DNA of 41,282 nucleotides from Bigelowiella natans CCMP2755 (Eukaryota; Protista; Cercozoa): positions 1-41,282 of the forward strand of contig ADNK01000836.1 of assembly GCA_000320545.1 (NCBI GenBank), written 5' to 3'. The position numbers were made by a program, and so were the translations under genes. How positions within the stretch are numbered: the stretch's first letter is position 1; each line of letters begins with the position of its first letter. Positions 204 to 31,460 of this stretch are shown here, one piece after another. Under the pieces are notes generated by a model, which made no database searches, was not told the origin of the DNA, and saw only the letters and a program-made list of their open reading frames with translations.

Positions 204-350
204 CAACAGCAGGGAAGATCCCGGCAGCATGAGAGGGGGCGAGGAGGAGGCAGAGGAGGACAGGGTGATAGCAACAACAAGAAGAACAACGATGATCGCA
301 AGGAGGAGGACGGTGAGACCGAACCATCTGGCGCTGGCGCAGCACACTAG
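29..350 (+). CDS. Terminal exon of a gene starting upstream of the window; low-complexity, polyQ/charged C-terminus
   Basis: Acceptor ccctcag at ~28, then an open frame PQSLLQKNDEAMM...GAGAAH to TAG at 348-350. No recognisable domain. Confidence 0.6.
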
Positions 351-780
351 CATGCAATGCATAATTTGTTGGTAAGAGGAAGCTTGGTGCTGTCAGATAC
401 GTATTTACGTACAGCAAGTCTCTCTTTCGATGCCGTCAGCAAAGAAATCATGCCATAATAGAATGATAGTGACGTAACAATGCAAGGGTGTCTGCTCTAG
501 TGCTGTCCGCATGACTACATGGCATCGACACATGCATGCTATCATGGTATCTCTAGAAATGCGTTTTGTCCAGCATTGTTCAAGAACATCTCGATCTCAT
601 GTCTAGATGTGCTCATTGCTCATGCATCAGTGTGGCATGCGCTAGTGCGCGTCGGCATCGAGTGCACATTGTACTTCTATGATGCGTGTATATTTAGAAT
701 TTATAATTTTACAGCACGGCGACATGCACTACGAGAGAGTTTGTTGTCAGTCACTGGCTTCGATACGTTTATTAGAATGA
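350..780. other. CATG/TGCA/CTAG-rich intergenic island 1
   Basis: Dense gcatgc, ctag, tgca and catg words, no microsatellites; lies between convergent stops at 350 and 848. Confidence 0.65.
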
Positions 781-847
781 AGACTCCATCAAGAGCAGCT
801 TAAGTGCTGCGCTCTCCTAGGAGTCCTCGCTACACCGTTGTTGCTCA

Positions 848-1057
848 TCAGCTTTTCCTTCTTCTGGCGCCTGCATGGATGTCGCTCCCAAGCCTTTGTT
901 GCTATCTAACAACACGACGTAGATGGAGTGAGATCAAAGCTACTATATACGACCGAACTCAATAACATGCGCATTATAAAGACCCTCTCCCCCCCCCCTC
1001 CCTGCACAGCTATCGCGTCACATGCAACAGCTTATCACATCCTCCTCCTCGTCCTCC

Positions 1058-1093
<36 letters not shown>

Positions 1094-1184
1094 TCGCCAC
1101 CAGCCAGTAGACAGCTGAAACCTGGCTCTAGCAGCCCCCCCGCCGATGTATCTTGAGCGACTTCCATTGATGCTACCACCGCTG

Positions 1185-1231
<47 letters not shown>

Positions 1232-1842
1232 TGATTATAATAATAAGGGGAAGGGGAGCAGAAATAAGGAATCATCCGTCGGATGGATGACGACGCCGAG
1301 TAGAGGGAAGATAGCCCAATGAGTCGTACATAATGAGAATCTTGCAAAACTGGGAAAATCGCGAATTTTGACGGCATTAACGCAAAACAAAACCAAACCC
1401 CGAGGAGGCAACTTTCGCCTGGCGACAAATTAAACGGCCAGGACAAAAGGGGGGCATCGAAGGCTGCTGCTGCTGCTGCTACCTTCGTCGTCCCACTGGT
1501 GGTTGTATTTCCGAGCCCATTCGCGAAGAGATTGCCTCTGTGCTCCGTTCATCCGAGCTCTGATGTATGCATGCATGTGTGTGTGTGTGTGTGTGTAACA
1601 CTCATCGCATCGCCTTCTCCATCTAGTCTGTGGCTCCATGAGGCCACCCCCCCCCCCCCCCCTGTCTTGCTTCCCGTTGGTACGTCGGTAGTGTCAGTAG
1701 CGCTAGTAGGTATTTGTAGTGGTAGCGGTAGCATATTGTACGTACTTGGGTCGAAATGCTTTGATCTGCTGGAACGCCTTCACACAGGACGGCGCCTCGC
1801 CCGCACATAACATAGCAGCAGCCAACACCTGAATGTAATATT

Positions 1843-1882
<40 letters not shown>

Positions 1883-1890
1883 CATTTATT

Positions 1891-1929
<39 letters not shown>

Positions 1930-2289
1930 AGGTGCGCGCCACTCACCGTAGCGCTCCTGCCATGACCGTGGGCACAGTGAACCTTGGTGGACCAACAAAG
2001 TCAAGAGACAGTGGGGAGGGGGTGGGGGGAAGCATTATCATCTACATAAAAGTGTCATCAAGGAGCAGACGGAAGGGAGATAAGCGTTGATGTGTCTGTG
2101 GTTTGCTGTCAAAAGAAACGTGTGCTTGGAAAAGTTATGGCCGCACGCACCAGCACGCTGTGGTTCTTCTTCCGTAGATCTGCAGCCCAACTTTTGGAGA
2201 GAGGAGCACCCATCAATATAGATTATAAGAGATTGTGATGTGAAGGAGGAAAATGCGCATGTACACACGCACTCACATAGAAAGAGAGC

Positions 2290-2340
<51 letters not shown>

Positions 2341-2494
2341 GCCATCAACGCCCTCCCCATCATCATCATCATGATCATCATCGCTGAACTCCACGACATG
2401 GTATCTCTTCGCAGTTGAATCTCTGCATGGGAAGGGAAGGTACAATGGTGCTCTCTATAATCGGTAAGGAGGAGGAGGACTACGGCTACTACTG

Positions 2495-2530
<36 letters not shown>

Positions 2531-2734
2531 TCAAACACAATGTGTGTGTGTTGTGTGTGTGTATGTGTGTGTGTGTGTGTGTGTCTGTGCATTACTTTGC
2601 CACAGAGTCCATTTGCTCGGGGCTTGGCCCAGCCGCATCCCACAACGGCACGCATCGGTAGTGTTTCACCTGAAGGAGGAGGAGGAGGAGGAGTAATGAA
2701 GAGAAGAAAGGTGGTGCAAACAAGTGTGCGGGCA

Positions 2735-2785
<51 letters not shown>

Positions 2786-4027
2786 GATGTTTAATTGCAC
2801 TCCTCTCATTTAGCAGAACGAATGCATGCACGGGCGCCATCAGGAGGGAGGTAGTATAATTACACACATATCTCTCTCTCTCTCTCCCCACCCCAAACAG
2901 ATGTTGTTCCCATCCCACATCATCATCATCATCATCATCACACCTTATGCTGGGGCCCCACAGGATATTGGCGGGGGAGCTCGCAGGTGCAGTCCACGAC
3001 CTGAGTAGCAGTAGCAGTAGCAGTCGTTTGTTTGCTGGTTTTTAATAGGAAATAATAGGAGGAGGAACCCTCGAAGAATCAGGTAAACACAGCACACCCG
3101 CACCTCAAATAATACATGCATGTCGTGCCATATCGCGAGTGAAGATAAGCGGTCTTCTCGCAGTAGCTATAACAGAATTACAACTAGCACCAACAAACAG
3201 CCACCGACCGCGTCTGCAAGGGGGGGCAGTGCACTTTGGTCATGAGGCCATCCACTGATGTGCCAGCTCCCATTGCTGCTGGTGTCGCTCAGAGCCTCAG
3301 ATCTACGAATAGCAGCGGACGATGATGATGATGAAGAAGAGATGATGACGATGACGAGACTGCGAGGAGGACGATGACCGTCTTCACGTGCTCGATTCTT
3401 GGCGAAGTTGATGGTGATAATGATGCTGACATTCCATAATCGCACACACATGCACAAGCATGCAATTTATCATCCGTTCTTACATCAAGGCTCGGCGCGC
3501 GTGCAGGCGAAGGCGGTAGAGAACGTGGAACGGCATGAACGCAAAGTACGACCACCTAAGGAAGAGAAGCGGGAAAGGAGGAGGCGGGGGGGGGGGGGGG
3601 GATATCGACGCAATATCAATGCAAGTAGGGATGTAGACAGGCACATACTACACAAACAACGCTAGGCAGATGTCTTCTGAGAACTACGAGACTGTACTAC
3701 AAACTTCTTTGTATTCGCCAGCCACGTCAGCGTTTCTAGTATTCTCTCAGGGCCCCATCCTCCTACTCCTCCTCCTCCTCCTCCCCCGTTCTCAATCGTG
3801 GGGGCCATCGTCGTGTTTTGACTCATGTGTGAATCACCACCTACCATTGTATTTCTCCATCGGGACGCTTTCCGAGAAGCTGCACGTAATTTAGCTATTG
3901 CACGATATAAGCAACGATAATGAGAACAGAGGATGGATGCTGAAATTGAAACGTTTATGCATCATAACACCGTGCATGATTCTTTGCGCAAAGTCCTTTG
4001 CTACTTCTTCTACTACTACTACCACTG

Positions 4028-4058
<31 letters not shown>

Positions 4059-4176
4059 CACTATTACCGTGTCTGTGGAGGCGATGCTGATTGCCAGTCC
4101 AGCAAGCGCAGCGTGCAGAAGAAAGCCACGGAGGATACTATGATTTGTCACGTCGAAGCCATCTGAGACCGTGTCG

Positions 4177-4227
<51 letters not shown>

Positions 4228-4239
4228 ATTGATATATGA

Positions 4240-4276
<37 letters not shown>

Positions 4277-4640
4277 TAAATTATGCGTGTTTACATGTTT
4301 ATTGAAAAGGAAAAGAAAGGTATAGCAAAAACATGCAAGTGTGTTGTTCTCAACGGATGAAAGGGCAGTCTATCAATTTGTTGCAAGGACCCATGATCAT
4401 TAAAATTCCTGCTCCACACATGCCTGTGATCGTGTTAAGAATAACTATGAGGACGATGAAGATGACGATTATGCTGCCGAAAAGCTGAAATGTGAGGCGC
4501 AGACAACGATATCAGGATGTGCAGGAGCTCTATGTCTTCCGCTTCGTTTGTGTTGTGATTACCAAGCTGCGACGGATGTCAGCACTGTAGTTAGGCTGTA
4601 GATTGCGCTTGAGCCGCTGGGCCGGTTTCTGTTTGCCCAT
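848..4640 (-). CDS. Dual-specificity protein phosphatase, YnbD-like, with N-terminal membrane segment (multi-exon)
   Basis: Spliced exons read LNYVQLLGKRPDGEIQW / SYFAFMPFHVLYRLRLH / GSWHISGWP / VVDCTCELPR / YRCVPLWDAAGPSPEQMD / WAADLRKKNHSVL / VHCAHGHGRSAT (1947-1982, the HCxxGxxRS active-site loop) / VLAAAMLCAG...IKAFRP / ARMNGAQRQSLREW. Stop TGA at 848-850. 5' exons and start are uncertain. Confidence 0.88.
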
Positions 4641-4696
4641 GCTGCAACCTAGAAGGGAGAACGAACGATTACACAATAGCATTGGAACGTAGCATC

Positions 4697-6300
4697 TCAA
4701 GGTATATGCGTGGTAGGTGATGAGGAATATTTCGAAGGAGAATTAACTACATTTTCTGAGAGCTTGATGGCGGTATTGGTATTTGATTTCCATAATGCGG
4801 AAGGAGACGGCAGCAGCATGGAGGGCAGGGAGAACCTTCTACCAAGTTTTGGCCCACTTCCCTTCTTGGACTCTACAGTATCCGCGATAGCATTTTCTAG
4901 CCACTGCGTTGCCGATGTACCAGTTGATTCTTGCACTGATGTTTCATTTCTTTCCATCTTGGTGTCGTTCTTTTTTTTCTTCATCTTTGAAATGACCTCA
5001 TTTCCCCCATAGAGTTCCATCCAAGATTTGCGCGTACGAACGTTCTTTTGGGTCGAAATTTCGGAAAAGCGCGGTATAATTCTAGAATCTGAATTGGATG
5101 ATGAAGGGCTCATTTGTCCCTGTCTATTGGACGCGTTTTGATCTTCATCTGCCGTGCTCTTGAAGAATAGTCTGAACTTGACAGGCTTCCCATTCCGTCC
5201 CGTTTCCTTCAGCGTCTCCGCGAGTCGAGACCTGCGAGCTTCATCTTTGGGTAAGGTGTTCTTTGCATTTTGGTCCAAATTTGAAGGATTTAGAGCATGG
5301 GGATTTGTATTGTGCGGCAGGACGAGAAGGAGGGATAGAAACACACAGTAGGGGTGGCGGCCTCGCCGCCACACCATCGATGTCTAAAGGAGTCCCAGTG
5401 TTTCACGGTTTTCTCCCAGTTTTAATAAATTCTCCAACCCTCAAATCACCAAGGCTGGAACTATCGAGCGCAATCTCACTCCTCTTGGTGACACAGACTG
5501 CCTGAACAACCAAGGTGAGGGGGACCACAAGGGTATGCCAGTTAGAATCCAGAATTATTAAAGCGCTCTTGTCCTCGTTTGAGCATCTTCGCTGCACAAC
5601 GTCCCCGCAGTCTGGGCGGTAAAACAATGGAATAATAAATCTACGACAAGGAATAAAACCATATTTAGACTTGAATATCCATGTGACCCCGATTCAGGTA
5701 AGTGTGCATCAAGATGAATAATCTCTAAACTCGTGGAATTCTGCAACGGAAATAAAATCTCGCCTTGGTCTAAGCGCGCTGGATTCGGGTTTAGGCTGAC
5801 CTAACATCTGTTGTCGCAGAACAGCAATCTTAACTCTGAGTGGCGCGAATGTGTTTTGTTTCGCTTCTTTAGCTAAAATTTTCCGATACGGGATACTTTC
5901 TGAACTTCTTCAGAATTCGGTTTCTCTTTGACATTTCAGGCAACGCAGAACTCCCAGAACTTTCTCAAGATTCCTTGTAAATTGCTCGTTTCCCGCTCAT
6001 CTAGTCATTTCGGGCCGTCTCAAATGTCGTATTATGGAAACGCCATGTCCGGTTCAAATACCCCTGGAGCATCTAGGTTATTATCGTGCGACAATGGATT
6101 GGAGTTGACTCAGAAGGAAAAAAGGCCAAGACAACCAAATAATCCTCCGACATCGGAAGGCGGCTAGTCTCGACACACGTTGGAAGATTTGAGCAGTGGC
6201 TTCTTGGAGCTGGCGACGCTGGATAGCAGCACCCAACTTCGACGATGGGTACGAGCTTCTTTTACAAACCAAAACTGTAGCGGGCTGACCCGAAGGCCCA
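4697..6300 (-). pseudogene. Hypothetical gene with apparent in-frame stop and frameshift (pseudogene or unresolved splicing)
   Basis: Microsatellite-free 226-aa ORF at 4697-5377, Ser/Lys-rich. The upstream frame AVCVTKRSEI...GRKP hits TGA at 5403-5405, continues NTGTPLDIDGVAARPPPLL..., then must shift frame to join the downstream ORF. Further exon-like pieces lie at 5660-5800 and 6170-6280. Confidence 0.4.
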
Positions 6301-6416
6301 ACTTTAAGAATGGGGCAGTAATTTGTCGCAGATCAACGTGTGCAACTCTGCAAAACAGGACAAATGCAATCTCACAACCCGTCGGTTGCGTGCGATGAAA
6401 AACGTGTTCGGAAAAT

Positions 6417-8055
6417 ATGAAAAATAATACATTTGAGAATAAACCGACATTGTATTTTCAATCGTGACGAACTCTGTTTCTTTAAAAAAAAGGGGGGACT
6501 ATCAGCCTCACGGACAAGCTCTTCAATGCCATCGATGTGGATAAGGTTATTAGTGCCGAAGAGAGTGTGTTGGCACCGCGTATGGGCGAGTGGCGAGTTG
6601 ATACCTTAAAGCAGGGAGCTTTGAAATTCCATGGTGAATTTATTTGCAATTCAATGATGAATTTCACATTCAGAGTGGGTACCTGACAAGGGACGAGTTA
6701 CAAGATTGGTAAAAGCTTATGAAATTAACCGACAATGGTGAGTGTGCTAAGTTGATGTTATGCTAAACAGGTTCGGTCATCGGATCCCGAATCTAACGGA
6801 CGATGATAAAGAATCAATGCTACGATCCTTCCAAGGTGCCATTCCCTGCATCCCGTGCCTCCTTTTCCTCCCCTTAAATCCACGTTTGCAGATCATAAAG
6901 AAATTGGAAGGGAAGATTTCGCGCAATTTTTTAAGAATTGGACTGGAAATCAGCTTGAATCTGCGTCAGTCACAATAGTAAGGTCAGTAGCTGCGAAAGT
7001 CACTAGGACTCTGGTTGATTCACACATGTATTGTACGTGCGACATCATGTGTGTGTGTGTGTGTGTTTGAGTGCGTGTGTCTTGGGTCTGACTGAGACAA
7101 GCTGCAATGCGAATGGTTTTCCCCTATTCATAGGTTGTTCAATATGGAAAAGGAGGTAGCCCATTTTCCCAGTTGCCCCTCACTATGAAATGAGAACAAA
7201 ACTTAAGTTACTCTAATTCTTCCGTAGGTGCTTGACATCCTACATGAAATGGATATAAATGATGTAATAACCAGGCGGCAGAGACCGTGTCATTGCTTGC
7301 GTTTCACGTTCTTCATTTCTATATTAACCCATTTAGGACGGCCTGTTAGAGAGGGATGAAATAGCTGCCATATTGAACCCTGTAATATCATATCCATCTT
7401 AAAGTTAAACAAATGGCGTGATAGAACTGTGTTTGTGTTTTGATGTAACAGAGCGGAAGACTCGGGAATCACGCGAAACAGATCAGAGGTATGATTAAAG
7501 AGTCGACGATTTTTTGTCTCTCTGATCATTCTACTCCTATGATTCTATACAGGGCTTTTCCGGCTTCTAGATAAGGATGCGAGCGGTCGTACTATATACT
7601 CGCTTGTTATCACTTTCAATTTTGTTTGTCTTTCCGCTTCCTTCGATCTTTTATTCTCCCACACCCTCTTTATCCCTCTATTTCACCCACTAATTTGCTT
7701 CGTATATCATTCCAATAGGCTATATAACAGTTGAGGCAATGGGAAAGGAGTTCCTACGACATTACAAACTCGCAAGTAAAAATTATATGAAACCAAGAGA
7801 GTGTGTTAGCCGAACGAATAGGCGCATAATAATGAGCTTTTATTTCAGGCAAGAGCCGCTCCATATGTCCCTGCTTGTTCTGCGAACACATATATGACTC
7901 AATCTACAAAAGACGGCAAGATTCGGTACGTGAGCATTTTGTATCTTAAGCTTCTCACTAATAATCTGATATATGTAAAGATGTGCTGCGGAATGTGTAC
8001 TGGACTTAAATATATGGAAGCGTCCCAAGTTAACCATCTTAAGGCTCATAAGTGA
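6417..8055 (+). CDS. EF-hand calcium-binding protein (3 recognisable EF loops, possible Cys-rich tail), short introns
   Basis: Splicing rebuilds LFNAI-DVDKSGYLTRDE-LQDW, LHEM-DINDDGLLERDE-IAAIL and LFRLL-DKDASGYITVE. Tentative tail SICPCLFCEH...MCCGMC...HK* with TGA at 8053-8055. Start and last two exons are less sure. Confidence 0.82.
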
Positions 8056-8179
8056 GAAGCTGGCCCCGCATAGATTCACCTTCTGAGAATACATGGAATT
8101 TCAAATTTAGCTGCTACACCATGATCATCATTACTATCAGTCCAGCTGTTTTCAACATTAGATCTGATTAGCATTTTTT

Positions 8180-8870
8180 GATGATATGTGCATGAGAGTC
8201 GTGTGCTTTGACGGAATGCATCGCCCATTAATGAGCTGCTTGCGGTGCGCATGCAATAAAAGAACATTTTGTCTTGAAAACATCATGCTAGCAAATGACA
8301 CGTGCGTGCGCCGCACACCGGTCTAGCGGTAAGGTCTAGAGGTAGTGCATGTGGCATATTCTTCATGACACAATCACATCACAGCAACATTAGCGCTGTA
8401 GCCACTGCTTTGCACAGCTACATGAGGATGACCATAGAACAAATTTAGTTTGATTCATTACATCCGTCTTACAGCAGCACTACACACAGTGCATTATAGC
8501 ATGTGACATAATGCATGCCATTTCTTCTGCTGCACACATGCGCAATCATCGTCGCGCATCCGACGTCTGTCTGGCACAGCACAAGATGTGCGTGGCACCA
8601 TGCTCACTATATCACGTCTAAGCCGCCGCTGGATCTGTGCAGAGATGTGTCCATGCGCACAGACGTACATGCTAGCATGTGCTAAAGTGGGCTAGAACAC
8701 ATGGCACATTGCAATCATCCTCTGAACATGAGCAGAATGCATCGAGCAGGCATTGCGTGAACTCGCACGCAGGCGAAATGACAGCAGATGCACGACCGAA
8801 CGATGCACAGCTGCCAGCATGCCTAGATGCACCAGTGCTGTGCAAATTCAAACAACGCACAACGAGGCAA
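8180..8870. other. CATG/TGCA/CTAG-rich intergenic island 2
   Basis: Same composition; lies between convergent stops at 8055 and 9021. Confidence 0.7.
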
Positions 8871-9020
8871 GGACGTCATTGTTCTTGCTGTTTTTCTTAG
8901 TGCTGAGAGAAAACGCACTAGACCACCAAAAAGGAGCCCTGATGGGGGCCAATGAGGCATGAATGGGTGGATGAACAAGCATTCTGTTCCACTTGACAAC
9001 GATTGAACTTGTTTCAGCTT

Positions 9021-9499
9021 TCAAACTTCATTTTTCGGGACCTTCCGCATCTGTTTCTCCAGTGGGGCACCCAAAGCTCGTTCCAGTTCTTTGTTCAACA
9101 TTTGCAAGTGTGTCATGTCTCTGGCGAACACACGGATTCTATTTTCGATGATCTTTTGCTTGATCACATTCGTGATGTCAGAACGATATGGGCGGAACCT
9201 ACTCCTCAACACCGTATCACCGAACAAGCCTTTCGCCTCGATGTTTGCATTCACACCAACCAGATACTTGACGATCTCCAAATGGCCATTTCCAGCACCC
9301 TCAATCAATGACGTGTTGCCGTTACTGTCCCTCGCCTCAATATTTGCCTTCACATGACGGCCTCCAAATGACCATTTTTAGAGCCAACAATCAACGGCGT
9401 ACCTCTCCAGTCCTTCGGCTCTATATTTGCTTTTTGCTCAATTAAACGCTTCAGGTGAGGAAGGTCGTTATCACGTGCTGCTTCGTTGATGCCAGACAT
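9021..9499 (-). pseudogene. Intronless ankyrin-repeat gene with a frameshifting deletion
   Basis: MSGINEAARDNDLPHLKRLIEQKANIEPKDWRGTPLIVGSKNGHLEAVM* switches frame at ~9352 into KANIEARDSNGNTSLIEGAGNGHLEIVKYLVGVNANIEAK. The expected KYLVE-like residues of the repeat are missing at the junction. Confidence 0.8.
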
Positions 9500-9722
9500 T
9501 GTCCTCCGGACATGAGGTGAGATTTGGGCATCTTCCGAGACGCCATTTTTTACAGAACGACAACACGTCACGGAAGAAAATCCTAGAATCGGCATAGTTT
9601 TTTAGCCGTCGCTCAAAAGTTTGATGCTTTCGATATTTCCGGCGCGTATATTTACCAGGAATATAACGAGGAGCGTGCAAACGGAAGAAGGAAGGACGAA
9701 CACTCGGAAGAAGCTGCTCGTG

Positions 9723-10477
9723 ATGGAGTCGGAAGAAGTGCAGGAGCCGGCCATGGACGAGATAGGTGCGCCCCTTGCCGATCATATCTCTCAGCTTCCT
9801 TCTCATCATAACGAACATGCGTTGTTTCCTTCCGGTTGGGTGTGTGGGGCCCCCAACGGCGACGACGCGGCGTCGCTCGTTCCGTTAGGCCGGAAGAAGC
9901 ACTCTCGGCTGACGGTCGCCCGGCGCCTCTCCATCGCCATACCCAAACCCACCTACCGGTAGCACAGCATTTTTCCGAAAACGAAGCCATTTACCTGGAT
10001 TTACGGCCTCTTTCAACGCAGGCCTCAGAAAGCGCTGGGGTACACCGACACATCCAGCGTATTCGTGGCCGAAAACACCATCACGAGTACCAAGCATGCA
10101 CTGAAGAAGGTGAGCCGTGGGTTTGGGAAAATATTCTCCGCCTCACCACTCCGCACCACTAATAAAGGGGATGTTGAATTTATTCGGTGTGAATAAATAA
10201 CCGCGTGTCTACTTGCAGGTCTCCAAAGTGATACCGAAGAACGACGTGCGAAATGAGGCAAAATGCAACTACACACACACACACACGCGCACACACACAC
10301 ACACACACACACACATGCATACAAATGTGTATGCATATACTCTCTCGTGCGCACTGAAATATTATATCTCGAGGCGGGTCTTCATAATTCTACATTTAAT
10401 ACAAAAACTGCTACCACTACAACTCGTACTACTGCCGCTACTACTGTAATGCTGTACAATCAAGTTAAGAATTCATT

Positions 10478-10520
<43 letters not shown>

Positions 10521-11609: not shown

Positions 11610-11655
<46 letters not shown>

Positions 11656-12275: not shown

Positions 12276-12326
<51 letters not shown>

Positions 12327-13562: not shown

Positions 13563-13595
<33 letters not shown>

Positions 13596-13988: not shown

Positions 13989-14046
<58 letters not shown>

Positions 14047-14175
14047 TATTTGACCCACCACGCCAACGATACGTCCACCATGCAGGTGGTTCGCAAGATC
14101 ATGGAAGGCAGGTCTCAGGATGATGTTTGCTTGCTGCTGCTGTATATACACATATCAACTATAGCTATGCATGCA

Positions 14176-14209
<34 letters not shown>

Positions 14210-17365: not shown

Positions 17366-17438
<73 letters not shown>

Positions 17439-18232: not shown

Positions 18233-18268
<36 letters not shown>

Positions 18269-19016: not shown

Positions 19017-19087
<71 letters not shown>

Positions 19088-19096
19088 GGATGTATG

Positions 19097-19159
<63 letters not shown>

Positions 19160-19239
19160 ATGTGTGTGTGTTGTATACAATTGAGAACCACGTGCATCCC
19201 GCAGGTCGATGTCCCTTTAATCTTGTCGCAATTCATCCC

Positions 19240-20430
19240 ACACAAGACAGTTGGCATAACGATTGCTTACGCCGGACTTGCAGTTGTGCTTTCGAGGCTT
19301 CATTACACTGATGACTAGAATAGCTTCTACTGCGAGGTCGTGCTAAATAAATCTAGACATGTCTACCATAAATCTAGACAATTTTGTTGCGTACAAGCAC
19401 CATTGTGACTGGACACTGTATTTGTTGATCTTCACATCGAGAAATGTGTGCCATGGGCCGTTGTGCTCGACATGACTAGATGAGGATGCGCAGCTTTTCT
19501 TGAGATGTCGAATGACATTGACATGCGCGTTTGCATCCTGAATGCACAGCATGCATGTGTTCCACTAAGCTAGCTAGGGCCATGCACGTACGTGAACGTT
19601 TAGATGGAACGCACCCGCCGCCCCGCCAAAAAAATGACAATGTCAAGAGGAGAGAAAGAGGGAAGTGTTGGAAGTGTTTGCACGTGCCAGCTGTCAACCA
19701 GCATGGTCATTTCCACGATGCACGGACAACACGCTGCGTTGCTGTGAAGACGCTCCTCAAGGTTCAAGGTTCCATGAATGAATGAATGAACTTGATGAAG
19801 ATCACACTTCCAAAACGTGACGGGACGTTTGCAAAGTGCGAAACGCAGTCTGGCAGTGCCAGAGCTAGAGAGTGCCTCGAGCCAAACCCAGAGAGGTCTT
19901 GAATCTGGTGCACGATGCCATGACAAAGCTGCAGCACTCGGAGTCAATGTGTTGACTCATGCATGATGTGGATGCTGCTCTGGACTGGACAAACATTGCT
20001 TCCGTGCCCTTTCCACGCACAACAGGCAGCGCTTGACAGCCCTGCTAGCCTGCTAGCCTGCTGGCCTGCTGGCCTGCCAACTCTCCTGTCCACCAACTTT
20101 GAGCCTGAGGGCATGCCAAGTAGAACTTTGACCTTGTGGGAGTCATCGCTGTCTTCGAACGCCAACCCAACAAAACGGTTTAGCGAACCCAGCTAGCCAG
20201 GGCGGACCAAACTTTGCACAACATTGCCTCTCGAAGCACAACAGTGTCTGCTAGTCTGGTGTGGGCACAATGCAACAACAGGTGACGAAGATCCTCCACA
20301 GCGCCCGAGCCACACATGTAACAACATGCTGCTTCGGCTGGGAGGTTGTGAATTCTAGCCATCACTCCGGTCCTTTGCCCAATTGTCCTTGCCCTGAGAA
20401 CATGAGCAATGATCATGTGGGTGATCAAGG
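19240..20430. other. CATG/TGCA/CTAG-rich intergenic island 3 (contains the LINE remnant)
   Basis: Same composition; downstream of the CDPK stop. Confidence 0.7.
19760..20430 (-). mobile_element. 5'-truncated, decayed non-LTR retrotransposon (LINE) 3' end
   Basis: ORF 20180-20428 contains LRART...CYMCGSGAVEDLRHLLLHC, the CCHC zinc finger found C-terminal to RT in many LINE ORF2 proteins. The frame continues through stops. A candidate tail of (TTCA)4 then (GAACCTT)2 lies at ~19758-19790. No RT core is visible. Confidence 0.7.
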
Positions 20431-20929
20431 TGAATGTGTGAATTGCGAAGAGCTGAAAGAGAGAGAATCTGTGAAAAAGAAGGCAAAAAGAAGAAAAAGA
20501 AAACGAGAAAACGAGAAAACATAGTCCATCGAACGATGAAAATCAAATGGGGAAAATGTACTGCGACAACCTATATGTGCTCAACCCAGCGAGAACGCCA
20601 TCTATGAAGGGCCCAAGAAATGCGCACTTCCGAAGTTCTCCCGTGCATTTAGCCCCCCACAAGAGCACGGGAAGTTGTCCAACCGCGATGTCCGAAGTTG
20701 TCGCAGGCGCACAACCCCCTGTCTTAGCATGGCGGCAGCGCTCTTGCATGCTCTTTAGTGACGTGGGCGACAAGGGAACGCAGGGCGTTCTCGCCGGAAA
20801 TCAAGGGGATTAGACAGCGATTGGGTCTCTTGGGAAGGGTGGGGTGGGGGGTCGACGTCGGCTCGACAAGAGAACACTCTTTTCCTCCCAGAACCCGCTC
20901 TCTCACCGGTGTCTAGACTGTTTTCCAAG

Positions 20930-21674
20930 ATGGCCCGCAGCAACTTCGCCTTCCTTGCCCTCTGCGCAGTGGTACGTTTCTCTCCTTACTATCTTGCACC
21001 TGGTGTTGCCCTGTGCTCAAGAGGAAAGGTGTGACGTTCTGTCTATGTTTTCTTGTTCTGTCTATGTTTTCTTAGCTCTCCGTTGCATGCTACTTCGCAT
21101 TCCTTCATGAACCCCGCCTCCAAATGGCTCCTGTCCGTGCACGCATGGCATCCCGCAGCGTGGCTACCCACGGTAATTATGAAGGTCCACTGGATCATGT
21201 TGTACTAGAGGAAGGAATGTGCGTGTAATTTTATAACGTTGTTTGTAATCGATCGGGAGAGGAGGGAGATTTCACGTTCTTGACGAGACCCAAATGTGAA
21301 AGAGATCGATTTGTATTATGTAATGTAGCCGCGAAAGGGGCTCTTGGATCTTGGGGAGATCTGATCTCAAAGAATGCTAAGGGAGGTGGAATGCCAAAGA
21401 AAGTCGTTACTGAGAAGACGTGGTGGAACTGCCTTGACCCAAAGTGGAAGAAGGGTGGCGCTGGATCGGTACTCGATTGATTGATACATGAGACAATTAT
21501 GCGTCTAAAATATACAAAAAATTCGACATTGATCATGGGCATTTAGAAAGAGATTCGAGTCGTATTTTAAGATTGCATACTAAGTTTTTGTTTCTTTGGG
21601 GTGTGTGTGTATGTGTGTAGAACTCCGAGGCTCAGCAATGGATCAACGGGTGGAAGAGTAAGGTTGGCAAGTAA
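20930..21674 (+). CDS. 110-aa protein with bipartite (signal + transit peptide) plastid-targeting presequence; function unknown
   Basis: Four phase-consistent GT-AG exons (20930-20971, 21076-21172, 21329-21468, 21621-21674): MARSNFAFLALCAVLSVACYFAFLHEPRLQMAPVRARMASRSVATHAAKGALGSWGDLISKNAKGGGMPKKVVTEKTWWNCLDPKWKKGGAGSNSEAQQWINGWKSKVGK*. Confidence 0.82.
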
Positions 21675-21859
21675 ATAGTTGAACTTCAGACCGTAGCAGC
21701 TCCTCGAGAAACTTCACAAAAGAAACGGATTGGAGAATGTACTGGCTTTGTATAGTTCTATCCGTGAAAATGCATAGAAAACCCAAGTATCGAAACAATA
21801 TACTTGTTTCATTTATCATTTAATCTGTTCATGAAACCAATTACAATGATGTATCTATT

Positions 21860-22610
21860 TCACGAGCCATACTAGCATGAGGCACGTACGCGGACGTATC
21901 ATGTAACGCATCGTCTCTAGCGTTCATTCGATTAATGCCATCCGATTAATGCCACTGAAATTTCTGCATGCTGTGGCATGTTCGCGGTTGCCGGTGTCCA
22001 TTGCTAGATTGAGCTAGCTTGGGTAGAATAACGAATGTACACGTTGTCGTCTAGCCGTACATCGCGCATCTACCTAAGATGTGTCGTGCTCACATGACTA
22101 GATGATAATCGTGCTGTGTAGATCGATCATGCATGGAATACATGTAGACATTGTATAGATGAAATCTTATTCATACGCTATTTGTCTATTTCGTGTGCAT
22201 CATGTAATAGGGACTACAAGTCCATATGCATGTACGGCATGGTATATGGTTGCAATCGACAATGACAGCTACAGCAGATGATTCATGCATCGGGGGATGA
22301 CCTCTTTTGCACACACGTCTAGACGTCTAGACATGCAGATCACACGTGCATATGCATGCACATTTTTCAATGAGTGCAATTGCGAGCACGTCTAGCAGAC
22401 GTCGACACATTGCTAGCTTGCGACCTCTAGCTAGCCAGCTAGATAGCCACACATTGCATCAACATAAACTTCGAGTCATTGTTGCACGTCTCTAGGTCTA
22501 TCATGCACCTCTTGATCCAGATGCTTGCTAGCTTGGCGCTTGTACTTGTTGTGCGATGCACATTTACCTGCTTTCTTGCCATTTAGTAGTAGCTAGCTGG
22601 CGCTACGACC
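21860..22610. other. CATG/TGCA/CTAG-rich intergenic island 4
   Basis: Strongest example (ctagctagccagctagatag, gtgcatatgcatgcac); lies between convergent stops at 21674 and 22630. Confidence 0.75.
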
Positions 22611-22629
22611 TTGGGCAATTTTTACAAAG

Positions 22630-22842
22630 TCAGTAATGCCATTGCTTGTACTCTCTGTTTGTGCTCAGCCCCTGAGCCATTCCCAAGTTTAAGTAGCTGA
22701 TGAGAATTTATGAAGCTAGTGGTGAGATAGTGAGGGAGTCGATCGTAGTCCACATACATGATCACAGGTAACACCCCAGGCAAATCAACCGAACGAAGAC
22801 CTCCTGGGTTCCTCCCCCGTGCATGACTATGAATCATGATCG

Positions 22843-22888
<46 letters not shown>

Positions 22889-23697
22889 AATCATCATTGT
22901 CATTAGTGACGGGGTCTTGAGCGTGAGAGGACAACGTGCGCAGCAAAAACAACGGTAAAAACTTAAGATTCCGAAGCTCTTTAAAAAAACTACCCCTCGT
23001 TGATCTGTAAAGAAAAAGCCCCTCCCCGACCCGAGGTGCCTCTCTGTGCAAACGATGAGGAGGAACGAAGGGAACGGGATAGGATTAGAAGCTTTTCACC
23101 GACGTATTCACTTATTGTGTCGATGCAAACTGCTTTGGGTTTGCGAAAAGAGAGAAAGGGATTGCAAAGCGCCATTGGCTCTCATTGGGAACACACAGAT
23201 TATGTAACCGTGCCCATATAACAACAAAAAAATTATCCGTGTTCCTAGATCGTCGTCGTCGTTCTTGCTATCGTGTCTACCTGTACCGTCGCCCTCATCC
23301 CCTTCTCTATCCTGCTTTCTCCCTTTTCACGCCCCTCCTGCTGCCAAGGGGCGCGACAATAGGGGCACATAGGCTGCTGGTTGCGCTTGCGTTGGCTGAT
23401 ACAGTACCGATCGATGCATTCGGTGTGCACGTTCTGCCCGCACTGAGCCTGCATGAAAAGGTAGGGCCAAGAGTGACGTGATGCTGAGCATGATGATGAT
23501 GACGATGATGGTGATTGAGGAGCATGGAAAACACAAAAAGTAGTGCGAACTACAACGAAATCCGTGAAGAACGACACCTTGCAATACGTAACCTCCTCGG
23601 CTGGCACCCCCTCAAGGTCGTCCATGCAAATAGGGCACTCGCCCTTTATCTATCGCGGAAAGAAAGAAGGATACCTCAGTTTTGGCACGCGAGTGCG

Positions 23698-23740
<43 letters not shown>

Positions 23741-24937
23741 TGTGGGATATATATGGGTGTGGTGCTCGTCTTTAAGTGTAAAAATAATAAATAGTTGAAT
23801 GGTAATAGTGAGTGTCCTTAGCGCGAATGTGCATAACTACCTCTTTACGAATGGAGCTGCTGCTGCTACTGCTGCTGCTGCTGCTACTGTTCTTATTGCT
23901 GGATGTTCCATGGTCTTTTGCTGTCTTCCCCTTTTCTTCGTCATCGCCACGGCCCTTCTCGTCGTCGCCCAGAGCACCTTTTTCGTTGACAGAAGTTACT
24001 TTTGAAAAAGAGAGCTGAGGAGACGGACTATTTGGTGCTGGCCTGGCGCTGATGACTCACGGGGATCAACACACACACACACACACACACAAACACAAAC
24101 GCATACACCAGGATGGAAATTGCAATAAGCGCAGGTAGTAGCTGGGAGCAGCACGCACCTGTTAAAATGCTATAGGCCCGCTGTACTCGCGTGTTCGCAC
24201 GTATTCCCCGACTCCGTTCCCCTCCACCATGATCTTCATGTCGGCTTGGAGCAGCAGCGAAGATCCCCTTCAATTCATCCTTAAAAACAGAAGGGAGTAG
24301 AACAAGGTTGGGAAAGAATCGCCGTCGCCGTCGTCATCGTCGTAGTCGTAGTAGTAGCAGCGGTAGAAAATGATTAAAGACACGAACGTGGAGAGGGGTG
24401 CTCAATTGATCGATACGCAAAGCAAGCAGAACTGCGAAAGAACTACGGGAGAAATACAAGATGAGAAGAAAGAGGAGGAAGCACAAAAGGATTGGGGAGG
24501 GGGGGCAGGGGGGAGAGGGGGAGGAGGAAGAGCGGATACTTCTAAAAGGCCTTTTTGATAGATAAGCGGCGAAGATGGCGGCAACCTGAGCACCTAAATG
24601 ATGAGATGGTTGAATTGAAGAAGAAGAAGAAGAAGATGATGACGATGATGATGACGACAACGATGATGACTTAGTATTAAGACAACAACGTGTCAGATTA
24701 CAAAGCAAAACAACCATAGCACCTTGAGATAGATGAAAAGGATGTGTTTGCACAGGTTTCCTTTCAGGAAATCAGGGCACGTGCACGAAGGCCTTTGTGA
24801 GATGTTCACGCCGTATATGTTCCCTTGAGCAAGCAGCAGAGAGGAAAATCCGTTAGAAATAATGATTTATTACAATCGAATATATGAGCGATGATGATCC
24901 TGACAAATGTACTACTAGGTAGCGTTGCAGTTCGCAC

Positions 24938-24971
<34 letters not shown>

Positions 24972-25873
24972 TGTATCATTGCGTGTGCTGCGTAAAACCT
25001 GTGGAACCCATGACTGCATACTCGCGGCAGAAGTCGTTAATGTGGTCGGAAGATACGAGAAATAAACGTTGACTGGAGGATAGTAATGGTGTGCATTAAT
25101 GCTACGATTCTGCTAGATCAGTATTCGTAGACGCTTTCTTCTAGCTCATAAATTCCAAACACGTTTCACACGGGCGATAGTACAGACGTCACGTTCATAC
25201 AACACGATATGTAGCTACAAATTTGTGACCTCCGAGCTCGTTCGATCCTATCTCTTGTCTTCGAATTCGGCTTCGATCGCCATCGGCAAATTCGTTTTTC
25301 CTTTGTTCTTATCCGTTCCGCCTTGTTCGGTCTCGGCAGTGACATTTTGGGTAAGGAGGAGGAGGACAAGGAGGGTGGTGATGATGGCGATTTTACACTT
25401 GTAGCCGTGAGCGGGAAAAATGTCTGCTGCCTAGTAGTCGTTCGAGGAGTTCCACACATGATGCAGCAAGCATTTGCCAACCTACGATCGTACAAAAGCA
25501 AGGGGAAGGAAGGGGGTGGGTCACGAGAGGGTGGTGGGAGTTGTTGCAGCCAATTTTACTGGTTGTGGAAGGTGCACGCCTCACATCCCCAGATTTCTGC
25601 AAGAGAAAAATGTTTTGGTCAGCACGAGGAAGGAAGTTAGTCTGATCATCTCATTCTTACCACTAATCGTTGTATGGGGGCGATAGAGCAACGCAGCGGC
25701 CGTCTCGTCGTCCATTAACCATCCCTCGTTACAGGTTCTCGCTTTCGTCTTGGTTTTCATTCCTCTGAGTTCATGTTTTCCGCGTCGTTTCGCCGATCCC
25801 CTCGCTACTTCTACTTTTTCGTCATTGTCGTCGTCGCCATGAGTCAAGTCGATGACATCCCTCCTTACCCTGG

Positions 25874-25904
<31 letters not shown>

Positions 25905-26334
25905 GTGACCGTGTTACTGCTGCCAATGACAGAGGATGATACATGTAAATCCCTGCCCCCCTTCCGCTACCTTTCACCCTTGCTGCTGCGTTCGCGCTTC
26001 CGGGATGACATGGAGCTCGAGTTCGCCCCCTTCCGCGACCGCATGAGTGGTGATGGTGATGCAATCAGCGAGCGAGCGAGAACATACAACCCGTTCGTAT
26101 CCTGCGACAACACCAAGTCTTTGTCGCACAATGAGAATCAATCGCACTCATGTGAGCCTGAACGCTGCAAAGCGGCTGCAGGAAAACGAGAAGGAAACGA
26201 TTGGATTCTGGTGGTGCGACTTGGAATATAAACAGAAACTCGAATTTCGCACAAAATTGCGATACGATCGTAGGGAAGTAGACTAGAAAGATCCACACCT
26301 CCCCACCACTACCCCTCCTCTGCAAGTACCGCAT
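22630..26334 (-). CDS. SWIM zinc finger + C4HC3-type RING finger protein (ZSWIM2-like putative E3 ligase)
   Basis: Exons: RDRIERARRSQ / YAVMGSTG / NIYGVNISQRPSCTCPDFLKGNLCKHILFIYLK (SWIM CxC...CxH) / VLRLPPSSPLIYQKGLL / ECPICMDDL...YCK / AQCGQNVHTECID...CPYCRAPW (RING) / EGYLNLGMAQGLSTNREY. Stop TGA at 22630-22632. 5' region above ~25450 is uncertain. Confidence 0.88.
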
Positions 26335-26382
26335 CTCGTCCCCCCTTCTCCAAAACGACCCGACGCACCTAGTTGGAACGGC

Positions 26383-27001
26383 ATGATTGCAAACCTAACA
26401 CCTCAGGAAGGTAAAACAATAACACTCGAATCAGTTTGGGATCGATATTGCATCGAACAAACTTTTCACGTTCCGAGCTCTGCTCACCACTCATCAACTA
26501 CATACATCATGATCGTCGTCATCGCATTAGGCGTGGTGATGGCGAAGACCTACGAAACACAACGAGAGGCCTTGAAACGAAAGGATCGCCATGCACCCTC
26601 CAAGGCAAGAGATGACAGAGAAACGTGCGCGTTTATCAGATATTTGCTTATATGTTATTACTATATGTTGCTTTCCTGCAGCCTGTGACGGGGCTCGTCC
26701 AGCAAATTAACACACTCAACCAATTTCACAGGTACTAGGGTTAGGGGGTTTAAAGAACACGTGTTGATCATTTTTTAATTAGACTTGGGCAATGGAGAAA
26801 TTTTCGAAACGAACTCCATTTGTAGGCTTTTTGCGACTACATGTGGACCATTGCTTGTTTCGATTCACAAGACAAAGAACGAATCAACTTAATGTCTGTG
26901 TATAAAATGTATACATGTATCCCTCTCAGCACATTCCGACCTATGATCAGCAAGTACAAGTTCCCAAGCGCGGTGGATCACACAAACAAGCACAAACACA
27001 C

Positions 27002-27047
<46 letters not shown>

Positions 27048-27571
27048 ACACACATGAATGAGGGAGGTGGAGAGTGAGAGAGAGAGAGAAAAGAGAGAAC
27101 TAGAGAGTCTCCGTGCTTGTTGCAAGAGTACCTTCCTTATGTTTAACCGCCATCATCATTTTTCTGATAGGCATGTGGGGCGTTCTCTATCGCTAACTCC
27201 ATATTGCTTGCGAAATTGCTGTCAGAGAGAAGAAAGGTGTATTTTACGCATGCGGGCATTTTTGTGCCGAATTAATGAATTAAAGAGCTCAAATTGTTAA
27301 TGCAGTCCTAGGGTTTGCCATCGTCCTTCACCATGATCTCCCCTCCTTTCCCCCCTCCCCTGCTGCTCAACCTGTCGCCTTTTTGCTCACCAGAAAGCAA
27401 AGGGTGTGGACAAGGCCATGAGTGCGGAGGAGCTGGAAGCCATCGTAGCGGTCCTGCGCTCGCCGGCCAAAGTCACTCCGCTGGTGAGTACGACATACGA
27501 CAAACGCCCCTTACACCTAGCATCAAACTATTGAATGGTCCCAAGCCTATGCATGTGTGTATCCTTGTGGT

Positions 27572-27612
<41 letters not shown>

Positions 27613-28442
27613 TGCGTGTGTCTGAGTTGGCGATCTACCGACGCAGGTTGAGAGGGTGATGAAGAAAATTAGCGAGGACCGCGCGAAATACGTGGCCAAA
27701 CACAAGAAAACCGCCTTTACCTCCAAGTCGTCTTTGCACGCATACTACGCATAATACGTTTATGTTTATGAAGGATAATATAATTATATATACATATTAT
27801 ATTTATGAATATTATGCTTGGTCAATGCTCCTAGATCGATTTCTGTTTAGTGTGCTTTTCCTTGCTATCCGCTCTCCTTCTCCCCCCCCCTTTTCATCAC
27901 GTTGGCTGAGCTGTCCCTGCGGTTGGGAATGTTGTGGGTAATGTTGTTGTTGTTGTTATTGTTGTTCTTGCCGTTGTTATTCTAGGAAAGCTGAAGATAA
28001 GTATATGCAAGACTGGGTCGCGAACTACGAGATAAGCGACTGGTTCATAAAGGTGATGATAACGATGATGATGATTGTAGTGCCTTCGTCTGGATATAGG
28101 CTTCTCGTTCTTCTCCTATTTTTTTTTTAAGTTTTTGACGCTTTGTGGTCGTTATCGTCATTGTTTGCTTCCTTCTTCCGTTTCCGAAGAAATCGCTCAC
28201 ATCTGTAGTTAGTTGATCTCTCATGAGAGACGCTAGATCTGAAATGGCGCCATCCCCGCACACATTCACAGTTCTCGTCGTCATTGCTCAAGAAAGAGGG
28301 GTCCGATACTGCGACTGATGACACCGACGATGCATGCAGTGCGGCAGACATGACGAATGTCCATTTCCTGCGGTCTGTCGGTGTAGTAGTAGTAGTAGTA
28401 GTAGTGGTAATGGTAGTAGTATTGGTAGTAGTAATAGTCGTG

Positions 28443-28478
<36 letters not shown>

Positions 28479-28643
28479 TATCTGCACCCATGCGTTTATT
28501 TTAGTCGATGTGGAGAAGTAGAAGAAGAAGAAAAAAACGAAAAAGAAGCAACAGTCGCAGTAAGAGCCTGCAACGCCCTTCCCCCCCTCCCTACTTGTTC
28601 ATAGGTACAATCAGTGGCCGGAACGCAACGGCTCAACATGTGA
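26383..28643 (+). CDS. Hypothetical multi-exon protein
   Basis: GT-AG bounded exons such as ACDGLVQQINTLNQFHR / KAKGVDKAMSAEELEAIVAVLRSPAKVTPL / VERVMKKISEDRAKYVAKHKKTAFTS / KAEDKYMQDWVANYEISDWFIK / VQSVAGTQRLNM*. No domain recognised. Confidence 0.6.
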
Positions 28644-29023
28644 TTACCTCAGACTAACGGAATGGCTTGCTTACATTTCTTCGAGACACACGTTATCTTT
28701 CGAAACCAATATGATGGAGGGGGGGGGGGGGGGGGATGCAAAAAAAAAAGGGGAAAAAAATGGCCAAGCAATATTACTACTCACAGCAAAAAAAACCGCC
28801 AAACACTATCACTACTCACAAGCAGTGATGGATTAACCCCCTCCTCCACGCTGCACCGATGATAATACATAGTCGAAGAGAAAGAGCGTTTGGTGGAGGA
28901 GAAAGTGTTTGGTGGCGAGAAAACGGGCGATAAGGTGAAGTATTAAGACCATTCTGAACGACAGATTCATGGGGAGGAGAGAGGGATAGATGACTTCCCC
29001 GACTACTGCTTCCTTTCCCTGGC

Positions 29024-29071
<48 letters not shown>

Positions 29072-29247
29072 AATGTGGGAGACTTATGACTGGCTAATAA
29101 TAATGAGAATAAAAATAATAATAATAATAATAATAATACATTTATATTATCCTGTGTATTGTGAAGGTGAAGGTGGAGCTGGAAGAGGGCGCCAGTAGAT
29201 TCATCGTTGAGTCGTTCGTTCCGGTAGTAAGTAATCTTGCTCTCTCT

Positions 29248-29338
<91 letters not shown>

Positions 29339-29503
29339 TTTTGAAGGTGTGCATGCGAATTTTTAGTTCTTGGTCTTCTTTTTGTTGTTATTTCATTCCC
29401 CATAATGTACATTTTCATCATCATATCACCATCGTCGTCGTCGTCATCTATCATCCATCCGCACGTGGTTTTTGAAGGAGAGGAAACTTAGACGACCCGA
29501 GGA

Positions 29504-30155
29504 ATGGTTAGCGATGAAGAGTGAGGGGAAAGGAAAGGAAGGGGCAAAGTCTCCCGCAGAGGTGGCAGACATTTTTCCTTTCTGGCAGTTCTATCATAAC
29601 ATCGGGAGAGAGGCTAGCTAGGGCGCGCTCCCGTTTCTCCTAGTGACGAATACTATTTAGATTATATGTAATAATAGCACGTTGGGCTGTGGTGCGCCGC
29701 TGCCCGGATTGGTCTTGGAGGTTGTCGCGTGCATCTGATTGTGTGTTCGATCTTGTTTTTGGGTAAATACGTCACAAAGGGGGCTCGGAGCCACCTCTCG
29801 GAAGTATTTCTGTTGGATGTCAACGGTGAGAACGACGATAAATTGCAACAGCGCGCGCGCGCGCGCGTGCGCGCACATACGCTCTTAAACGTGTCGCATC
29901 GACGGGTCGGCTTAGATTTGTTAGAGGAGTGCCTCATCGGTGAGCGATTGTTACTTTGTCGCAACTGTAGGCCACTTCGTTACATCGTTTTCTTGTCATT
30001 TGGAGAAGAAAGTAAGTAGCGACTGCAGACAAGGGCAAAGGGAGGGGTGGTGGCAGTTAAATCCCGAGAACGCGCTGCGAAGAATGTACCAACAAATGTG
30101 TCAAATACCCATTGGTGATGTGTAGATAACATGCAAAAGAAATGTATATTAATGT

Positions 30156-30228
<73 letters not shown>

Positions 30229-30665
30229 GCAATATGCTTATAATCATTCGACCAGGTTGTGCTATTATTGCGTGTTCTTATCTGTGTACCTTTGTCTTCT
30301 CTTTTGTGCAAAGGATAAGTCCATCACCCCATGTTTGGTGGTCATCAACACGACAGGGGTACTACTACTACTCCTACTACTTCTACTTCTACTATCACAT
30401 CCATCAGGAACGTCATTCAGGCTCTTGTTATCATCACCTAACAAAATGTGCACAAAATAACTATTAGGCGAGCTATATTAGCCCGGGGGCTCCGGCGGCA
30501 GCCTACGATCTCTCCTTCATCTCGCCTGCTCCTGCAAACCCCTTTGCGGAAGGTGTGGAACAAATCAAAGCAATGGGAATCCAGAAGACAGATCAAGAGA
30601 TTTCGCGTGCATTGCTCTCGGCTGATGGTGACATCAGTACGGCTGTAGCAATGCTCCTTTCATAA
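29504..30665 (+). CDS. Small multi-exon protein with C-terminal UBA domain
   Basis: Last exon 30468-30665 ends FAEGVEQIKAMGIQKTDQEISRALLSADGDISTAVAMLLS*, matching the UBA pattern (MG turn, AL...GD...AV..LL). Upstream short exons TLGCGAPLPGLVLE / GHFVTSFSCHLEKK / DKSITPCLVVINTTG. Start uncertain. Confidence 0.75.
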
Positions 30666-30779
30666 GACGTGGTGGGTTTGCACGTGGAAATCACTCTTAA
30701 TTCGACGTTTCGTTCAAAAATTATAAAAGCTGACTGCTACGTGCGCGCAGAAGCGTATATTAAATATATAGCCGCATAC

Positions 30780-31460
30780 TGTTTCTAGATATTGTCAGCT
30801 CGTGCGCGACCGTCGGTGCGACCAGCTACGTAATTGTTTCCCCCCTCCCTCGCTCTTGCGGCGTAATTGCATGTGGGAATGTGAGGTGTACGGACACACA
30901 CGTGCTGTTCCGTACTTGCGCTACTATGTATGTACATCCCCTTTAATTTGTATCTGCTGTCGACGTCGCGGCTGAATGACAGCTATGTCCTCATGCACAC
31001 TGGCGATGTCGTCAAATGCTTGCTGATTCAAAATGCTACACGGCTACAGAAATACACAGCATTATGCTCTGTTGGTCAACGCATATTCGACACATGTGCA
31101 TGATGCGATGTAACCTATCGATTGCGTCGCTCTGTACGTTACTATTTATTGCATCATCTGTCCATTGCATGTGCTCCATTTCGCAAGTTGTAGACATTTC
31201 CTCAGTTGCCAATTTATGAAGACTGTTGCGCAGAAGTGGTTCGACAATAATTAATGCAAACTACTCAGTTGAAATATGGGCACTAATCACTACTATTGCA
31301 GTGGCGACGAATAAGATAGAGCATGCACGCTTACGTTATCAAGATAATTCAGTCTATTCTAAAATTGTCGCAGATTACATGATCGCAATAATAATGGCAG
31401 CGCTTATCACTCATTACTTTGAGCAACGATACCCTTGTGCCATGTCTCATGCATTCAAAG
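30780..31460. other. CATG/TGCA-rich intergenic island 5 (weaker; abuts the AT-rich HAD fragment)
   Basis: Many catg and tgca words, fewer ctag; lies between convergent stops at 30665 and 31814. Confidence 0.55.

Follow-up and report, generated by a model that had tools for sequence, protein, structure and literature searches.

Palindromic-word islands at head-on gene ends of Bigelowiella natans and A-to-G-biased mutation in an associated retrotransposon family

Repeat-induced point mutation (RIP) of fungi is a mutagenic defence that acts on both strands of repeats, changes C to T and raises TpA. In kinetoplastids, base J is a DNA mark at convergent strand-switch termination sites and at repeats, with a T(N)12A spacing. 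For Bigelowiella natans, TA→TG/CA hypermutation of viral insertions has been reported (bioRxiv 10.64898/2026.01.13.699255). That preprint names RIP, finds reverse-transcriptase (RT) domains among TpA-poor genes and describes a single-copy hypermutation target, and it leaves open how the DNA is chosen and whether transposons are targets. Here we describe five islands of palindromic words (CATG, TGCA and CTAG) in a stretch of 41,282 nucleotides (nt) of B. natans CCMP2755 (contig ADNK01000836.1, assembly GCA_000320545.1; the window), their location at head-on gene ends, and a family of long interspersed nuclear elements (LINEs) that contributes to one of them. Our leading explanation, which we hold tentatively, is that these spacers between head-on genes begin at or close to poly(A) sites, contain truncated retrotransposons and were shaped by TA→TG/CA hypermutation together with a second, palindrome-building process.

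As in the reported hypermutation, the changes described below turn A to G or T to C at TpA, hit both strands of foreign or mobile DNA and go along with TpA loss and TpG/CpA gain. The reported targets are long viral insertions, whereas ours are LINE ends beside convergent gene ends, where the effect is graded from the LINE 3' end and TAG is probably spared. The available preprint text mentions neither convergent spacers nor CC/GG loss nor palindromes. TpA hypermutation itself is already reported, and what is new here is LINEs at convergent gene ends. Like RIP, the process would be a mutagenic defence acting on both strands of repeats, but its polarity is A→G and TpA falls (rho 0.23 in a LINE remnant). 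Base J shares the association with convergent termination sites and repeats, and T→C at TpA could stem from a modified T; the T(N)12A spacing gave no signal here (z = 0.4 at lag 13). In S. pombe, convergent genes receive a heterochromatin mark via read-through RNA (Gullerova and Proudfoot 2008, cited in PMC3380556), so that a mark is directed to head-on ends, but no mutagenesis is described in the part of that source available to us. An H3K9me3/H3K27me3 state lies on B. natans transposons (10.1101/2025.03.17.643675). The TGCA N6-methyladenine motif noted in PMC13196603 for viruses of this algal class shares only the word with the islands. A literature search that left most subscription papers outside its coverage, and whose palindrome-island part was not completed, turned up no description of these spacers.

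Islands at convergent gene ends

The original prediction had singled out by eye five tracts saturated with palindromic words. They are located as follows.

350..790, no strand: island 1, between a plus-strand stop (348-350) and a minus-strand stop (~789-791), from word counts and the island model
8190..8900, no strand: island 2; the end of plus-strand RNA falls into the 8081-8279 bin, and the unique part 8479-8876 is free of RNA
19250..19600, no strand: island 3 core, after the stop of a kinase gene (19309-19311), with RNA from both strands at 19424-19667
21855..22620, no strand: island 4, reaching from a poly(A) site as far as the stop codon (22622-22624) of a minus-strand RING gene
30780..31460, core ~30850-31300, no strand: island 5, between a plus-strand stop (30663-30665) and a minus-strand kinase gene ending at ~31814

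The third tract had been drawn as one; it falls into two, the core at ~19250-19600 and, distinct from it, a TA-poor LINE remnant (19600-20440). Otherwise counting bore the tracts out. CATG, TGCA and CTAG occurred at 18, 16 and 10 per kb in the five islands compared with 4.9, 5.9 and 1.7 in the rest of the window. Summed over the three words, islands 1 to 5 reached 51, 54, 35, 63 and 28 per kb, and the four divergent junctions 12, 11, 22 and 9; island 5 holds a single CTAG. The three-word counts of all five islands exceeded 500 of 500 mononucleotide shuffles. Dinucleotide shuffles (n = 500) were stricter: islands 1, 3 and 4 beat every one of them, whereas island 2 fell short at p = 0.08 and island 5 at p = 0.21, and a good part of the word signal is therefore dinucleotide composition.

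In islands 1, 2, 4 and 5, CC/GG was lowered (rho 0.37-0.55), GC (1.5-1.8), CA/TG (1.4-1.8) and AT (1.3-1.4) were raised, and purines and pyrimidines alternated more often (0.60-0.64 vs 0.49). A second-order island model, trained only on two outside metagenome loci (the island of L002 and the 3' end of L001, described below) and on none of the window islands, flagged exactly five segments at a cut-off of our own choice (>8 bits per 300 nt; window median -25). These segments, 351-851, 8101-8901, 19251-19601, 21801-22701 and 30851-31301, are the five islands, with the proviso that some of the training sequence consists of LINE tail copies akin to ~130 bp of island 2. Microsatellites cover 8.8% of the window, an intron-rich piece of eukaryotic DNA; the introns are packed with microsatellites of 1-3 nt, and the islands are nearly free of them (17 masked bases in 3.7 kb).

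The proposed link to convergent gene ends held within the window. An island was present at 4/4 convergent and 0/4 divergent junctions (Fisher p = 0.029), and at 5/5 junctions having a 3' end (p = 0.008). Head-on gene ends are confirmed by RNA at islands 2, 3 and 4, for the last two from a single 3'-biased run, ~6% of it read in reads of at most 60 nt; the head-on status of islands 1 and 5 follows from open reading frames (ORFs) and stop codons. At island 1, minus-strand RNA lay on one upstream exon of the partner gene ending at 790. Plus-strand RNA stopped near 8200 at island 2. Minus-strand RNA was found within island 3, which is therefore head-on at the RNA level too; RNA from either strand at 19424-19667 stayed below depth 1. 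Island 4 begins within ~10 nt of a poly(A) tail behind 21853 and overlaps the 3' RNA of the RING gene (22230-22620), the RNAs of opposite strands abutting near 22230. Small-share metatranscriptome runs covered only the expressed gene at 20930-21853 and were uninformative on the islands.

The signature starts where RNA stops, and promoters and introns lack it. The same would be seen if nothing were targeted and unconstrained, little-transcribed gaps simply displayed the genome-wide mutational equilibrium. We consider this quite improbable. The published background is AT-biased 2.65-fold (10.64898/2026.01.13.699255), so that AT-rich spacers would be expected, the gradient along the LINE reported below is local, and island 4 overlaps a transcribed 3' untranslated region (UTR).

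Beyond the three words, the window islands contained 37 4-nt tandems (15.5 in shuffles) and 91 6-nt palindromes (66 in shuffles). Palindromes were in excess at 4, 6 and 8 nt but not at 10 nt, and 13/16 palindromic tetramers lay above the trinucleotide expectation in islands compared with 4/16 elsewhere. CATG, TGCA and CTAG can be traced to two repeats, (ATGC)n and (AGCT)n, and 19/27 AGCT tandems come from L001. Autocorrelation over islands and outside loci peaked at lags 4 and 8 alone, with no 10-nt (nucleosome) period, and island-against-island blastn and a repeat search revealed no common family and no common motif longer than ~24 nt.

Such a texture might instead be a selected termination or chromatin-boundary code, read by a DNA-binding protein or by nucleosomes, with transposons tolerated and the LINE 3' end mimicking the code. 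The surplus of palindromic tetramers, the occurrence at all four convergent junctions and the start of island 4 so close to a poly(A) site fit this idea, as do the failure of substitution models and a synonymous imprint on the LINE compatible with mimicry (both below). We nevertheless find it rather unlikely: the islands share no long motif and no nucleosome period, LINE pieces interrupt them, and the RNA of the strongly expressed gene before island 4 ends before the island starts. If the texture were selected, it would represent an undescribed termination code in Rhizaria.

Retrotransposon ends in and beside the islands

As had been proposed, three islands contain or adjoin mobile or foreign-looking DNA.

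8346..8473, plus strand: LINE 3' end, 5'-truncated, inside island 2; last ~25-30 codons of ORF2 and 3' UTR
19600..20440, minus strand: remnant of a non-long-terminal-repeat (non-LTR) retrotransposon beside the island 3 core, TA-depleted (TpA rho 0.23), with a weak zf-RVT match at ~20255-20380 (E = 0.0044)
31480..31810, plus strand: HAD/pyrimidine 5'-nucleotidase-like fragment (TIGR01993, E = 0.0066) beside island 5, beyond the stop of the kinase gene, 22% GC

In three DNA runs, summed depth on 8385-8473 was 217,000-251,000 compared with 50-113 on the unique flanks, a ratio of roughly 2,000-4,000 that as a rough guess suggests thousands of copies of the LINE tail, depth being no copy number. 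A scan with a motif of this LINE retrieved the two metagenome loci. L001:216-5130 is a full-length, apparently intact LINE with an ORF1 of 489 amino acids and an ORF2 of 1,160 amino acids carrying PF14529 and PF00078, and has near-identical copies in several marine assemblies. Its ORF2 terminates in the element of island 2, almost at the element's end, and its 3' flank is island-like. L002 consists of a gene followed by an island, about half of which is made up of three LINE 3' ends. The family thus has the hallmarks of non-LTR retrotransposons, namely ORF1, an endonuclease-RT ORF2 and many short copies with a common 3' end, the truncated copies being 8346-8473 of the window and the three in L002. 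A B. natans gene model belongs to its 90% cluster, and its closest named relatives are other models of that species. Two of the species' gene models, P0002 and P0003 (one of them a kinesin), end in the C-terminus of the LINE's ORF2 and are likely annotation fusions with LINE copies downstream of genes.

The LINE 3' end, folded as a recognition stem-loop, had no advantage over shuffles (z -0.7 to -0.8), and no clear target-site duplication or tail was seen on inspection by eye. A description of this B. natans LINE family did not turn up in the literature covered, which left out most subscription papers. An 88-bp repeat considered as a miniature inverted-repeat transposable element or Helitron end was dropped, as it matches the end of the LINE's ORF2. 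Scans of viral contigs with the LINE motif, the LINE ORF2 and the HAD fragment gave no relatives; matches to short motifs at 49 viral and 4 prokaryote loci are due to chance, none extending >34 nt.

The islands might then be nothing but piled, decayed 3' ends of LINEs or short interspersed nuclear elements with an inherent composition; that they might be copies of a single repeat family had been anticipated as a refutation of the original prediction. The last 400 nt of the LINE indeed share the island composition (CC 0.51, GC 1.65, alternation 0.59), and the three ends in L002 and the two B. natans gene models point the same way. In island 2, about 130-170 bp do come from one family. Its protein and DNA profiles, however, found nothing that rose above reversed-sequence controls in island 1, the island 3 core, or islands 4 and 5, and no further copy in the window, and composition would be expected to fade as homology fades. 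We therefore rate this explanation as improbable.

The remnant at 19600-20440 is a LINE different from that of island 2; a search returned its own sequence and one weak repetitive match, no useful homologue. Minus-strand RNA at 19424-20033 comes from this decayed LINE, head-on to the 3' end of the kinase gene. Within it, at 20043-20078, an 8-bp unit is repeated four times with TA in two units and TG in two at one position, the direction of change being indeterminable from this repeat alone.

Direction of mutation among LINE copies

Cytosine deamination by a RIP-like process had been the proposed source of hypermutation. We read the direction of change from 14 close LINE proteins, counted by hand with the majority residue taken as ancestral; the proteins are assembly-derived, so stops and silent changes are invisible. 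The 43 derived differences comprised 30 transitions, 12 transversions and one double change. A→G/T→C made up 25 of the 30 transitions and G→A/C→T the other five. At TpA, 16/30 transitions were TA→TG/CA, against an expectation of 9% (206/2,213 opportunities; p = 1e-9), while two fell at CpG and none at CC (CC→CT). The most diverged copy, a 91%-identical gene model, contributes 7 of the 16 TpA transitions; without it the count is 9/19. Consistent with this polarity, Tyr was changed in 6/30 cells of a second subfamily (20 proteins, B. natans reference copies), to Cys or His and with no reverse change toward Tyr, whereas Arg was changed in 2/250 and Trp in 0/85. In a third subfamily (30 proteins, marine samples) Tyr was changed in 1/255. 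Hypermutation hence does act on this DNA, with a polarity opposite to that proposed; the head-on gaps are probably hot spots of A-to-G hypermutation by the alga itself, and not of cytosine-methylation decay.

Silent sites of the L001 LINE revealed a gradient. The loss of silent TA spans the final 1.2 kb of this full-length copy, whose 3' third is stripped of TA. In its ORF2, silent TA is gone on both strands past codon ~850: NNT|A was 51:89 in codons 1-750 and 2:41 in codons 880-1100, and NTA:NTG was 25:24 in early and 1:28 in late codons. Relative to a codon-randomised null, the last 120 LINE codons were raised in alternation (z = 3.8), GC (4.6) and CA/TG (5.9) and lowered in TA (-3.7), with CG at -0.3. 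Synonymous-site alternation over the last 120-160 codons was graded from the 3' end (z -0.4, 2.6 and 3.5 in three blocks). Because LINE synonymous sites carry this graded alternation, even coding DNA must receive the texture from some local factor; we prefer to read this imprint as mutation, selection being the other reading. The three DNA runs showed 0-1 differences in unique contigs of 4300-10250, which gives no power on the mutation rate.

Erosion by CG and non-CG cytosine methylation, followed by C→T, finds some echo in the islands. The CG share of pyrimidine-purine (YR) steps falls slightly (0.15-0.19 vs 0.21 elsewhere), the C share after C is reduced in all four contexts, CTAG outnumbers CCAG 3:1, and TpG/CpA is in surplus (rho 1.4-1.8), although TA editing yields the same surplus. 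B. natans also has a DNMT6 (PMC9998398). However, CpG is not depleted in islands 1, 2, 4 and 5 (rho 0.84-1.16), CG is unchanged at LINE synonymous sites, the islands are 43-51% GC with no erosion toward AT, and the LINE transitions are concentrated at TpA, with the 0/30 at CC weak on its own (p = 0.10). No B. natans methylome was found, with subscription papers mostly outside coverage, and a word search of the main texts of PMC12695648 and PMC12344493 did not return the species. 5-Methylcytosine deamination as the mechanism is thus not supported, and we judge this explanation very improbable. A CC→CT component may still contribute, in view of the lowered C share after C and of the model fits below.

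Possible processes behind the island texture

We applied the preprint's thresholds (1-kb windows, TpA rho <=0.43 and CpA+TpG >=1.52). Only 8401-9500 and 19301-20500 passed, and islands 1, 4 and 5 and the HAD fragment failed. Of the TA that survives in the 19600-20440 remnant, 6/9 lie in CTAG. In L001 the figure is 4/181 where the element is unedited and 1/16, which has no power, where it is edited. In N(T/C)AN contexts of the islands, T had a share of 0.46-0.81 when C preceded and of 0.19-0.51 when A or G did, a pattern compatible either with TAG-sparing editing or with a CC→CT process. Models were then fitted on a coarse grid, conditioned on the islands' purine/pyrimidine skeleton. Log-likelihoods were -959 for TA editing that spares TAG, -982 for CpG plus CC and -1006 for CpG, with -930 for the saturated model. 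Transitions leave purine/pyrimidine alternation unchanged, so the alternation is not explained by editing.

Several observations weigh against the two-process explanation. TA/YR in islands 1, 4 and 5 (0.22-0.24) matches the 0.21 found elsewhere, so these islands have no net TA loss, and the HAD-like fragment beside island 5, seemingly a recent foreign insertion, shows no editing (TpA rho 0.99). TA editing combined with CC→CT fits as well as TAG sparing (-961 vs -959). Eleven substitution-only equilibria, transversions included, reached an alternation of at most 0.545 and at most 8.6 CATG per kb; as they miss both, the explanation needs a second, putative palindrome-building process. The divergent and promoter regions also carry some excess of 4-nt tandems (26 vs 14.8, reached in 10/300 shuffles). 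The polarity derives from outside LINE copies and not from the window's own remnant, and the LINE 3' gradient may track copy number instead of position. Finally, the scope is a single window plus two outside loci, both retrieved by the LINE motif.

Under the explanation that we favour, LINE ends would accumulate in head-on gaps, by tolerance or preference, and TA→TG/CA editing would be stronger in these convergent spacers than elsewhere. Poor editing of TAG could let CTAG survive and create no new CC/GG. Slippage or template switching at the self-complementary 4-mers (ATGC)n and (AGCT)n may then generate alternation and palindromes. By analogy with S. pombe only, overlapping read-through RNA might guide the machinery to the gaps.

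A more far-reaching version, that every head-on junction is a mutagenic sink in which editing is addressed by position, LINEs are rewritten from their 3' end, TAG is spared and a palindrome texture is left behind, seems doubtful to us. If true, the position rule would be the missing targeting rule of TpA hypermutation, be it by an enzyme that deaminates A or by one that oxidises T. Our results offer, at the level of individual copies, direct evidence that LINEs are edited, together with a proposed context rule in which TAG is spared and, in the convergent 3' spacers, a candidate address.

Two neighbouring features complete the picture.

9021..9499, minus strand: remnant of an ankyrin gene, frameshifted and multi-copy, partner of island 2, with TpA rho 0.32 and trace RNA
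20930..21853, plus strand: small spliced gene, highly expressed, stop 21673-21675, its 3' UTR without the island signature

Silent sites of the ankyrin remnant (NTA:NTG 0:14, NNT|A 5:12) are too few to establish editing. Its segment 9261-9290 is multi-copy, and one related record skips 9040-9428. By eye, the product of the gene at 20930-21853 seems to have a tryptophan-rich C-terminus and a leader resembling a signal and transit peptide. A direct repeat of ~75 bp, likewise noticed by eye, is present in two copies at 36087-36260 within the long divergent junction.

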